The notes under the pieces were generated by a model. That model worked only from the letters and a program-made list of their open reading frames with translations. It had not been told where the DNA came from and ran no database searches. The translations under genes and the position numbers were made by a program. A stretch of 64,000 bases of DNA from Escherichia coli (GTDB lineage: Bacteria; Pseudomonadota; Gammaproteobacteria; Enterobacterales; Enterobacteriaceae), in the NCBI RefSeq assembly GCF_050920415.1, contig NZ_CP169309.1. The stretch is one strand, 5' to 3'. This document shows positions 25,444 to 29,505 of this stretch, piece after piece. The stretch's first letter is position 1. Each line of letters begins with the position of its first letter.

Positions 25444-27084
25444 TCACGCTGTTGCGAAACTAACAGACTCACCAGCTCCGCGTGATTCTGCCAACACAGA
25501 ATGTTTGTTCAGGCGGAAAACGTCTACCGCCTCAGTTAATCGTGCAGCCTGTTCTTCAAGGGACACCGCCGCCGCTGAGGCCTCTTCTACCAGAGAAGCA
25601 TTCTGTTGCGTCACCTTATCCATTTCGGAAATCGCCTGGCTCACCTGCGTTATGCCTCTACTTTGTTCATCCGAGGCGGCGGCAATCTCCTGCATGATAT
25701 GTGTGACACTCGCGACGGCATCAACAATCGTGCTCATGGTTTTCCCTGCCGTTGCCACTTCAACCGACCCCAGGTCAATTAACCTGACTGATTCACTGAT
25801 CAAGCCTTCAATCTCTTTCGCCGCCTGGGCGCTGCGACTTGCGAGTGTCCGTACTTCGCTGGCGACAACGGCAAATCCACGTCCTTGCTCACCCGCTCGT
25901 GCGGCTTCAACGGCAGCATTCAGCGCCAGAATATTTGTCTGGAAAGCAATGCTGTTGATGACGGCAGTGATCTCGGAAATTTTCTTTGAACTCGTGGAGA
26001 TTGCTCCCATCGTTCTAACTACACCGGAAACCGTCTCCCCGCCATCGCTGGCTTTAATGGAGGCCTCTTGCGCCAGTTTGCTGGCATGATGCGCGTTATC
26101 CGCATTCTGTTTCACCGTCGCAGTGAGTTGCTCCATGCTAGCGGCAGTTTGTTCGATTGCCGCCGCTTGTTCTTCGGTGCGAGATGAAAGGTCCGCATTG
26201 CCAGCGGAAATTTCGCTGGTGCCACGATAAATCTCTTCCGCGCCCTGTCGAACAGTCCCGACTGTCATCCCCAGTGAATGCTGCATTTGCTGTAAATGAT
26301 GACTTAAGCGACCGATTTCATTACGACCCGCCGGTTCATCATTCATCGTCAGATCGCCACTGGCAATTTTTTCAATCCGTTGTGCGGCATGTTGCAGTGG
26401 ACGAATGACGATCCGACGTAGCACCATAAATGTTATCAGCGTCATGACCACGGCAAGCACAAACGCGCCAATCATAAACATCACACCCAGGCGGGTACGC
26501 TGATGGGCCTGTTCCGCCAGTTGGTTGGCTCTGGTGCTACGTATCTTAACGGCTTTGTTCAAAATATCGGTATAAGCATTATCCAGCGGTCGGATCTGCT
26601 CACTTTCATGATTGATAATCGCTTCAAACATGCCATTTTTGGCATATTTCAACATAGGTTGCATACCCGTGATATAAGCCTGGAAACGTTGATTTAATTC
26701 AGCGTCGAGAGCTTCATCAGCAAGTGTTTTCACCGGCCGACTCTGGTAAGCCCGATAACCTTGCTGCGACTGTTTAATCTCCGATTCGGCTTGCGCAATA
26801 TTTCGCTTCATTGCTTCCATTTCCGCAATACGACTCGCCGCCCCGGCCTGAATCATATTGATCCGGGCCGAACGCAAAAAATCTGAGCTGTTCGCTAACC
26901 CGGTCCGAATCTCAATCTCCGCAGTCACATCACGCTGATCGCGATCGGCCTGCCAGAGGAAATAGCCAGCCAGGGCTGAACTCAAGGCAAACAGAAGTAA
27001 GATACCGCCAAGAATGCAGGCAAATAACGGAACCAGCCTGATGTGATGCAAAAAACCTAATCGCTGTGAGGGAGTTGTATTCAT
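25444..27084 (-). CDS. trg: Methyl-accepting chemotaxis protein III (ribose/galactose sensor) Trg
   Basis: ORF 25444..27084 (-), 546 aa; two TM segments, HAMP, conserved MCP signalling region. Confidence 0.95.
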
Positions 27085-27366
27085 TACCGTTGTCTCTCTT
27101 CCAGGTTTACTCCTGATAGAAAGTCATCGGCATTTGACGGTAATTACTTACGACTAAAAACCTCTTTGCGTCACATTTTTACAACAATTATTGCAGAGAA
27201 GATTAATGCCATTGGATTGAAGAAAGTGAGGAATGGTTAAACTGGCTAACCCGAATGACGAAAAATTCTGGAAAACAGCACGCTATTTCGTGAAGTGATT
27301 ATTTTCGTCCCTAAGGAAACCTCATAGGATGCCTGCGGGTGCCTGTACTGCCCCCCTTTTTACGCT

Positions 27367-27540
27367 TCAGTTAGTGCATGTTTTTTTCGATGCACTAATA
27401 GAACCATCATTACAGACAAATTTGCCGCCTGCTGTACAGTGAGAGATCCCCCCTTTCGAACCAGAGCAGGGTTTGCGCCCGGCATCGGCATAAAAGGAAA
27501 CAAGCGCTCCCATAACCAAGATAAGTGCCAATTTTTTCAT
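27367..27540 (-). CDS. ydcA: Small secreted protein YdcA (57 aa)
   Basis: Hand-translated from the minus strand: MKKLALILVMGALVSFYADA...KKTCTN, ATG revcomp at 27538-27540, stop at 27367-27369; below ORF-track cutoff. Confidence 0.8.
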   Translation of the reverse strand: MKKLALILVMGALVSFYADAGRKPCSGSKGGISHCTAGGKFVCNDGSISASKKTCTN

Positions 27541-27710
27541 ATAACCTCCATGGTTTATCGAATCTTATGTTCGATTTGAACGTTATACGCTGGTTTATTT
27601 TGATACCGTTGATGAGATCAAAGAACGGGTGAATTGATTAAAGATAAGCCAGATGGGCATATGGACAAGGATTATGGTTTTATTTGTCATACAAATAAAT
27701 ATAATAGGCG

Positions 27711-27774
27711 CTTCCGATGTAGGCCCGTATTCTTCGCCTGTACCACGGGTCGGTTTTAGTACAGGCGTTTTCTT
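27711..27774 (+). ncRNA. rydC: Hfq-dependent sRNA RydC
   Basis: cttccgatgtaggcccgtattcttcgcctgtaccacgggtcggttttagtacaggcgttttc matches the remembered RydC sequence with terminal hairpin and U-run; in the ydcA-cybB intergenic region convergent with cybB, as in K-12. Confidence 0.75.
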
Positions 27775-27784
27775 TAAATATCCT

Positions 27785-28315
27785 TCAGGAACGTTTACGC
27801 GGCATCATGCGTAGAAGTGTGTTGTCCTTCCAGAAATAGTGGTGTGCCAGTGCAGCCGCAGCGTGCAACCCGATGACAAAATATCCCAGATTCGCCAGCG
27901 TCTCATGCCACCACTTTAAGCTATCAACCCGTTCGAAATTGGCCTCTGCTGCGTAAGGCATTGTCATACCAAACGCAAACCATGGGTTGCCCCGGTTATA
28001 CATCATCACCAAACCAATCACTGGTAGCGCAATAAACAGGAGATAAATCACCAAATGTCCCAAATGTGCCAGTCCCGTCATCATCGGTTTTGGTTTAGGT
28101 ACAATCGGCGGAGTTGGGTATTTAAGCCTTAACAAAAGACGAACAACCATCAGCACGAGAATTGAGATGCCACAGGAAACATGAATCATGTTGATGAGCG
28201 GCCGATCGCTACGTGGGAAGAAACCACGAAACTCCATTGCGCAATACGCTGCGATAACCAGCAAAAAGACCAGCCAGTGAATGCCGATTTGTAACCTTGA
28301 ATATTTACTTTCCAT
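27785..28315 (-). CDS. cybB: Cytochrome b561 CybB
   Basis: ORF 27785..28351 (-); CybB from internal Met MESKYSRLQIGIHWLVFLLVIAAYCAMEF... (176 aa). Confidence 0.92.
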   Translation of the reverse strand: MESKYSRLQIGIHWLVFLLVIAAYCAMEFRGFFPRSDRPLINMIHVSCGISILVLMVVRLLLRLKYPTPPIVPKPKPMMTGLAHLGHLVIYLLFIALPVIGLVMMYNRGNPWFAFGMTMPYAAEANFERVDSLKWWHETLANLGYFVIGLHAAAALAHHYFWKDNTLLRMMPRKRS

Positions 28316-28503
28316 AACATTTCCTGCTTTAACATAATTTTCCGTTAACATAACGAGCTTTTCTTAAAATTTCATTAAATTTTGTTCACCCGTTTTCAGT
28401 ACGTTACGTTTCACGGCAAGAATGTAGATTGCCCATCCCGCCATCCTGGTCTAAGCCTGGAAAGGATCAATTTTCATCCGAACGTTCCTGACAGGAGAAG
28501 ACC

Positions 28504-29505
28504 ATGAGTAAAGTTGGTATTAACGGTTTTGGTCGTATCGGTCGACTGGTGTTGCGTCGATTACTTGAAGTCAAAAGCAACATAGACATTGTCGCTATTA
28601 ATGATCTCACTTCCCCAAAAATTCTCGCCTACCTGCTGAAACATGATTCAAACTACGGACCGTTCCCCTGGAGCGTTGATTTTACGGAAGATTCACTTAT
28701 CGTTGATGGAAAAAGTATCGCGGTTTACGCCGAAAAAGAGGCTAAAAATATTCCATGGAAAGCGAAAGGCGCAGAAATCATTGTCGAATGTACTGGCTTT
28801 TATACCTCCGCCGAGAAATCGCAGGCGCACCTTGATGCTGGTGCGAAGAAGGTGTTGATTTCCGCCCCTGCCGGTGAAATGAAAACCATCGTTTATAACG
28901 TCAATGACGACACACTGGATGGCAACGACACCATTGTTTCCGTGGCGTCATGCACCACTAACTGTCTTGCACCGATGGCCAAAGCCTTGCACGACAGTTT
29001 CGGAATAGAAGTCGGCACGATGACGACCATTCATGCCTATACTGGCACCCAGTCACTGGTGGATGGCCCGCGAGGTAAAGATCTACGCGCTTCACGTGCA
29101 GCGGCAGAAAATATCATTCCCCACACTACAGGCGCGGCAAAAGCCATTGGTCTGGTGATCCCAGAACTGAGCGGCAAACTGAAAGGTCATGCGCAACGCG
29201 TACCCGTGAAAACAGGTTCGGTGACTGAACTGGTGTCTATTCTTGGAAAAAAAGTGACTGCCGAAGAGGTGAACAACGCGCTTAAAAACGCGACAAACAA
29301 TAACGAGTCATTTGGTTATACCGATGAAGAAATAGTCTCTTCTGATATCATTGGCAGCCATTTCGGGTCGGTGTTTGATGCCACGCAAACCGAAATTACC
29401 GCCGTGGGCGATTTACAGCTGGTGAAAACGGTCGCCTGGTATGATAACGAATATGGCTTCGTCACGCAGCTTATTCGCACCCTCGAAAAATTCGCTAAAC
29501 TCTGA
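28504..29505 (+). CDS. gapC: Glyceraldehyde-3-phosphate dehydrogenase C (GapC), apparently intact 333-aa reading frame
   Basis: ORF 28504..29505 (+); NGFGRIGR Rossmann motif, catalytic SCTTNCLAP; uninterrupted. Confidence 0.9.

Follow-up and report, generated by a model that had tools for sequence, protein, structure and literature searches.

The 64,000-nucleotide stretch of Escherichia coli DNA that was analysed (hereafter the window) carries on its plus strand, at positions 27711–27775, what is almost certainly rydC, the gene of an Hfq-dependent trans-acting small RNA, with the fold, regulation and action on cfa that are proposed below. The gene is intact and was already known, and the finding is an ordinary one. 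The identification follows from a full-length covariance match, near-identity to the K-12 gene, conserved synteny, retention of the seed, helices and U-tail of the RNA, and retention of its pairing site in cfa. Nothing was found against it.

Rfam cmscan of the 64-kb window was utilized in order to locate the RNA, and returned RF00505 (RydC) at 27711–27774 (+) with a score of 90.5 bits (gathering score 48 bits; E = 1.6e-16) over model positions 1–64 of 64. The initial annotation had read a RydC match at exactly these coordinates from the letters of the sequence, and both of the checks that it proposed, an Rfam scan and an alignment to RydC, found the RNA rather than coming back empty. In the alignment, 63 of 64 nucleotides were shared with b4597, the curated K-12 gene. 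The length of the RNA is 64 nt by Rfam and 65 nt by the K-12 annotation, in which rydC spans 1491442–1491506 and lies 9 nt past cybB and 170 nt from ydcA. A permissive cmscan of positions 27000–28500 gave no Rfam match besides RydC even at E ≤ 1. The only other Rfam match in the window is a full-length MicC small RNA at 61565–61685 (−) (RF00121, 124.4 bits; gathering score 90).

The gene is located in the intergenic region 27541–27784, which separates ydcA from cybB as had been described initially. On its 5' flank and divergent from it lies ydcA (27367–27540, −), which encodes a secreted small protein of 57 amino acids; this open reading frame is a RefSeq CDS in an identical genome, where it is labelled a hypothetical protein, and its K-12 counterpart b1419 is equally placed relative to rydC. 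On the 3' flank and convergent with rydC is cybB (27785–28315, −; K-12 b1418), the open reading frame of cytochrome b561/superoxide oxidase and likewise a RefSeq CDS, named cybB, in the identical genome. The cybB stop codon (TGA, minus strand) occupies 27785–27787 and 10 nt (27775–27784) remain between it and the RydC 3' end, in line with the convergent arrangement and the 10-nt distance first claimed. Synteny and orientation (ydcA −, rydC +, cybB −) are the same as in K-12 and agree with the description in PMC11340327, and the intergenic region is 99% identical to that of K-12 over a 250-nt alignment. The rydC locus was found in 5415 out of 5426 complete E. coli genomes. Matches to ydcA-rydC-cybB were also observed on plasmid-labelled records (5 of about 5420), which may be mis-assigned replicons or plasmids with chromosomal DNA.

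E. coli strain MFDS1022581 (NZ_CP169399.1) served as the reference relative, being 100% identical to the window over queries of 985 nt and 20 kb; nearly all of the remaining complete E. coli genomes were 95–99% identical to the same queries. In the RefSeq/PGAP annotation of this genome no feature is placed over rydC, and the same was true for 30 other sampled E. coli records, the feature being present only in the curated K-12 record. The initial remark that no ORF-based annotation captures the gene was thereby borne out. ORF-based views of the sampled genomes consequently miss RydC, a functional regulator.

Several further differences and features were observed around the locus. Absent here (27085–27366, with the break near 27346–27354) are two features that K-12 has between ydcA and trg, the hokB/mokB/sokB toxin-antitoxin module and yncP. 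The ydcA-trg spacer is 282 bp in the window versus 619 bp in K-12, and no sok was found in a permissive Rfam scan. One or two sok copies adjoin rydC in other Escherichia loci (L005, L007 and L008). On the other side, gapC (28504–29505, +; RefSeq 'gap') is an intact open reading frame for a glyceraldehyde-3-phosphate dehydrogenase of 333 amino acids, whereas K-12 gapC (b4493) is a pseudogene. The minus strand showed no terminator-like site between the cybB stop and the co-oriented ydcA; read-through from cybB would be antisense to RydC and could reach ydcA.

By sequence and covariation, the fold of the RNA is an H-type pseudoknot in which helix 1 (nt 12–18 with 35–41) is interleaved with helix 2 (nt 25/26–33 with 49–56/57), because the 5' arm of helix 2 falls within the loop of helix 1. 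Crystallography and mutagenesis had led to the same fold in published work on RydC (PMC4337610, PMC3985669). The 5' arm of helix 1 (27722–27728) forms seven standard pairs with the 3' arm (27745–27751), and the helix is modelled by Rfam and recovered by pair counts. The arms of helix 2, nt 25–33 (27735–27743) and nt 49–57 (27759–27767), are 9 nt long and 100% complementary, consist of GCCTGTAC and GTACAGGC plus a flanking C and G, and were identified by a repeat search and pair counts. All 16 pseudoknot pairs are standard in the window RydC (7 in helix 1 and 9 in helix 2). A11 and G42 are unpaired in this allele, which gives a helix 1 of 7 bp versus 8 bp in the Rfam consensus. Upstream of the helices, nt 1–11 are unpaired in the fold and lie within the single-stranded 5' seed that was assigned to nt 1–13 (27711–27723) from duplex prediction and conservation.

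The initial annotation had described the 3' part of the RNA as a terminal hairpin followed by a U-run. The complementary arms (GCCTGTAC at 27736–27743 and GTACAGGC at 27759–27766) and the U-run that follows (TTTTCTTT) are there as described. A simple hairpin they are not, since the 5' arm sits within the helix 1 loop and the structure is that of a pseudoknot. Nested MFE folding of RydC was unremarkable (z = −1.12), as is expected because the algorithm cannot represent a pseudoknot; the helices were thus evaluated singly and by pair counting.

[quoted passage not shown] Judged by sequence, these determinants are all present in the window RydC. The first U-U step, U23/U24 in loop 1 (27733–27734), is invariant in the alignment of orthologues. 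The second, U46/U47, belongs to the linker U44–U47 (27754–27757) and corresponds to conserved TT columns. The U-rich tail UUUUCUUUAA, which begins UUUUCUUU, occupies 27768–27777 and would provide both the proximal-face site and the U-run of the terminator. Hfq would thus grip the RNA by its tail and by both U-U steps, and helix 2 together with the U-run doubles as the intrinsic terminator of rydC.

Conservation was evaluated in an alignment of 11 RydC sequences, 8 of them distinct, from Escherichia and Salmonella-like genomes. A genome scan with CTTCCGATGT-N11-CTTCGCCTG gave six further Escherichia orthologues and matches on two MAG contigs. The latter two, L004 3558–3587 (Lachnospiraceae) and L006 2613–2642 (Verrucomicrobiaceae), were rejected as RydC as they are chance matches to the 19-base pattern and have no similarity beyond its fixed bases. 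No orthologue was found in metagenomes with a fixed-spacing pattern; patterns of this type miss the Salmonella-like RNAs because of one extra nucleotide in loop 1. A revised metagenome pattern returned two orthologues, L014 (73 bits) and L015 (83 bits), both above the Rfam threshold. The Salmonella RydC, which likewise exceeds this threshold, was rebuilt from the primer table of PMC4337610, in which two primers carry engineered mutations.

Across the 11 sequences, 97.1% of all pseudoknot cells were paired (93.8% for helix 1 and 100% for helix 2), and this value fell to 26–45% when the partners were slid. The outer five pairs of helix 2 were fixed by the search pattern in the two metagenome sequences, and their invariance there is uninformative. 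Three adjacent pairs of helix 2 are doubly changed, from U-A/A-U/C-G in Escherichia to C-G/G-C/U-A in the Salmonella-like sequences. This covariation reflects essentially one divergence, that of Escherichia from the Salmonella-like clade, and hence few independent events. The most conserved part of RydC is the seed (CUUCCGAUGUAG), with nt 1–12 unchanged in all 11 orthologues.

The same comparison bears on whether the region might code for a small protein instead of an RNA, a reading to which we assign practically no probability. Two open reading frames on the plus strand do overlap rydC, at 27653–27814 (53 amino acids) and 27634–27759 (41 amino acids). When E. albertii and both Salmonella-like orthologues were translated in the same register, however, the start codon was missing and in-frame stops were encountered. 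Two 1-nt indels within the RNA break the frame, and the substitutions are compensatory for the RNA helices.

The rydC promoter contains a perfect −10 box, TATAAT, at 27700–27705 (+), whose final base precedes the RydC 5' end at 27711 by 6 nt; it has no recognisable −35 element. This sigma-70 promoter matches the description in the literature of 'a perfect -10 box... no obvious -35 box', with the 5' end mapped at CUUCC (PMC11340327). A consensus scan missed both the promoter and the terminator of rydC, as the scan requires a −35 element and the 15-nt loop exceeds its limit.

The presence of this promoter is also relevant to the idea that the complementary arms and the U-run are merely the terminator of a neighbour, for example a bidirectional one serving cybB, and that no small RNA gene is present. 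The hairpin does lie 10 nt past the cybB stop codon, and its palindromic arms can fold on either strand. On the cybB strand, however, the hairpin is followed by AAGAAUACGGG and not by a U-run, and a scan of the gap found no terminator-like site on the minus strand. A terminator alone would further leave unexplained the perfect plus-strand −10 box just upstream, which stops 6 nt short of the mapped 5' end. No terminator would include the 5' 12 nt, and it is these that are best conserved and that pair with cfa. K-12 curators, moreover, annotate an independent ncRNA. We consider a terminator without an RNA gene to be exceedingly improbable, and the arms are taken to belong to rydC itself.

Immediately upstream of the −10 box lies a perfect 21-bp palindrome, TTTATTTGT-CAT-ACAAATAAA, at 27679–27699, with 9-nt arms that are 100% complementary and 3 nt apart. 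Counted from the transcription start it covers −32 to −12, and it abuts the −10 box, a position that overlaps the core promoter and is compatible with repression. YieP, of the GntR/FadR family, represses rydC, as deletion of yieP results in roughly 20-fold derepression; the site is undefined in that paper (PMC11340327). The YieP ChIP-exo consensus is atTTGTaTGAcaAAT, and rydC and ydcA are among the YieP candidates (PMC7642389); an earlier ChIP-exo regulon was without rydC, as remarked in PMC11340327. The 15-bp core of the palindrome, 27682–27696 read on the minus strand, has 0 mismatches to this consensus, a motif that may derive in part from the K-12 rydC site itself. About 1.5e-4 exact matches would be expected from base composition, and with up to two mismatches allowed the rydC core is the sole match in the 64-kb window. 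In 10 promoters, drawn from at least 5 species and including Escherichia and the two Salmonella-like orthologues, the sequence between −33 and −5 does not vary, and DNA farther upstream diverges. The yieP gene itself is carried by 5424 of 5426 E. coli genomes.

Based on the motif match, we infer that the palindrome at 27679–27699 is the YieP operator. YieP normally keeps rydC off, and a YieP dimer bound to the palindrome would fill the −35/spacer region and block RNA polymerase. A search of the literature found no footprint or EMSA of YieP on the rydC site, nor was the palindrome by the −10 box found spelled out there. The operator is a refinement of known regulation and not a discovery, because the motif had been published before and both rydC and ydcA had been listed as candidate targets of YieP.

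Two of the positions at which the locus differs from K-12 are of note. The first is RydC position 13 (27723, +), where the alignment shows a G instead of A, the sole difference within the RNA. G13 pairs with U40, which turns the A-U pair of K-12 into G-U and leaves helix 1 paired. An 85-nt stretch that contains the whole RNA with this allele recurs unchanged in 1113 of 5415 E. coli genomes (~20%), and E. albertii, E. whittamii and Escherichia sp. MOD1-EC7003 have G13 as well. G13 is a common allele and probably an old one, since it is widespread in E. coli and occurs in three other Escherichia species. The second position is 27686, a G in the window, where the palindrome is perfect, and an A in K-12 and in strain E69, where it has one mismatch. 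The 45-nt promoter allele with the perfect palindrome is the majority form (3962 of 5363 genomes).

Taken together, these differences might be read to mean that the gene is RydC by descent and that this allele is impaired, with G13 weakening helix 1 and a perfect YieP operator silencing rydC. Evaluated alone, helix 1 does lose 0.6 kcal/mol through G13 (−9.9 against −10.5 kcal/mol with A13), RydC becomes less stable in vivo when its pseudoknot is disrupted (PMC4337610), and the operator palindrome is perfect in the window and imperfect in K-12. G-U is nonetheless a standard pair, and the frequency of G13 in E. coli together with its occurrence in three other species suggests that it is tolerated. 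The seed, the U-U steps, the tail and the target site are all intact, and most genomes share the promoter with the perfect palindrome. Impairment is therefore judged very unlikely, and the window is taken to carry an intact rydC.

The converse view, that it is K-12 that carries an atypical regulatory allele of rydC, can be put forward tentatively and with more doubt than confidence. RydC regulation was worked out in K-12, which has the G-to-A change in one half-site, whereas the perfect palindrome with the YieP consensus is present in at least 73% of complete genomes, the one analysed here included. Independently of this, G13, which sits where the seed meets helix 1, is carried by about 20% of genomes, again including this one. 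Should the variants at 27686 and position 13 alter the affinity of YieP or the stability or reach of RydC, then rydC repression, cfa induction and tolerance to membrane stress would differ between lineages.

Pairing of the seed with cfa was evaluated by duplexfold. Nucleotides 3–12 of the window RydC and positions −99 to −108 of K-12 cfa were predicted to form a 10-bp duplex of −16.6 kcal/mol that includes C5:G-101, a pair that has been proven by the compensatory mutation C5G/G101C (10.1101/271551). Only 1 out of 1000 seed shuffles equalled this duplex. The cfa 5'UTR of MFDS1022581 has 7 differences from K-12, none of which is in the pairing site, and the same duplex was predicted. The pairing is in silico here and the effect on cfa is taken from the literature, where the RydC 5' end pairs with the long cfa mRNA, an RNase E site is protected, Rho-dependent termination is countered and the synthase is raised (10.1101/271551, PMC4337610, PMC3985669, PMC11340327). 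Weaker, repressed targets are also described in the literature (yejABEF, csgD, pheA and trpE).

The proposed action of the window RydC is the same. As the fold leaves nt 1–11 free, the 5' seed would pair with the long, sigma-70-dependent cfa mRNA isoform at −99 to −108. This would mask the RNase E site and counteract Rho-dependent termination, and more cyclopropane fatty acid synthase would in turn be made and stabilise the membrane.

The biological weight of the finding is small, as the structure of RydC with Hfq has been solved, cfa has been proven to be its main target and YieP has been identified as its repressor. What the window adds is an exact YieP consensus in the −35/−10 spacer of rydC, a concrete candidate operator to go with the repression that genetics alone has established to date, which also suggests that the K-12 mismatch is a minority allele.

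Compared with known systems, the window gene is closest to K-12 rydC, with which it shares the flanking genes, orientation, −10 box, seed, helices, U-U steps and U-tail. K-12 differs in A13, in the A at the equivalent of 27686 and in the hokB/sokB module next door. Salmonella RydC, L014 and L015 have the same nt 1–12, helix 1 core, outer six pairs of helix 2, U-U steps and tail. The Salmonella-like RNAs differ in one additional nucleotide in loop 1 and another in the linker, and in the inner three pairs of helix 2, which are C-G/G-C/U-A and not U-A/A-U/C-G. The 5' neighbour of rydC is STM1638 in Salmonella, whereas it is ydcA in the window. With respect to regulation, the site of yohJK, an established YieP-repressed operon, resembles that of rydC in having a TTGTATGA-type palindromic core near the start of the regulated gene. 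It matches the YieP consensus at 12 of 15 positions versus 15 of 15 for rydC, and the rydC site lies in the −35/−10 spacer of an ncRNA promoter. With respect to action, ArrS, the other small RNA that activates cfa, pairs with cfa at the same 5'UTR site, near G-101, and makes the long isoform more stable (10.1101/271551). Its sequence and locus are however unrelated to those of RydC and it has no pseudoknot, and the likeness between the two RNAs is functional only.
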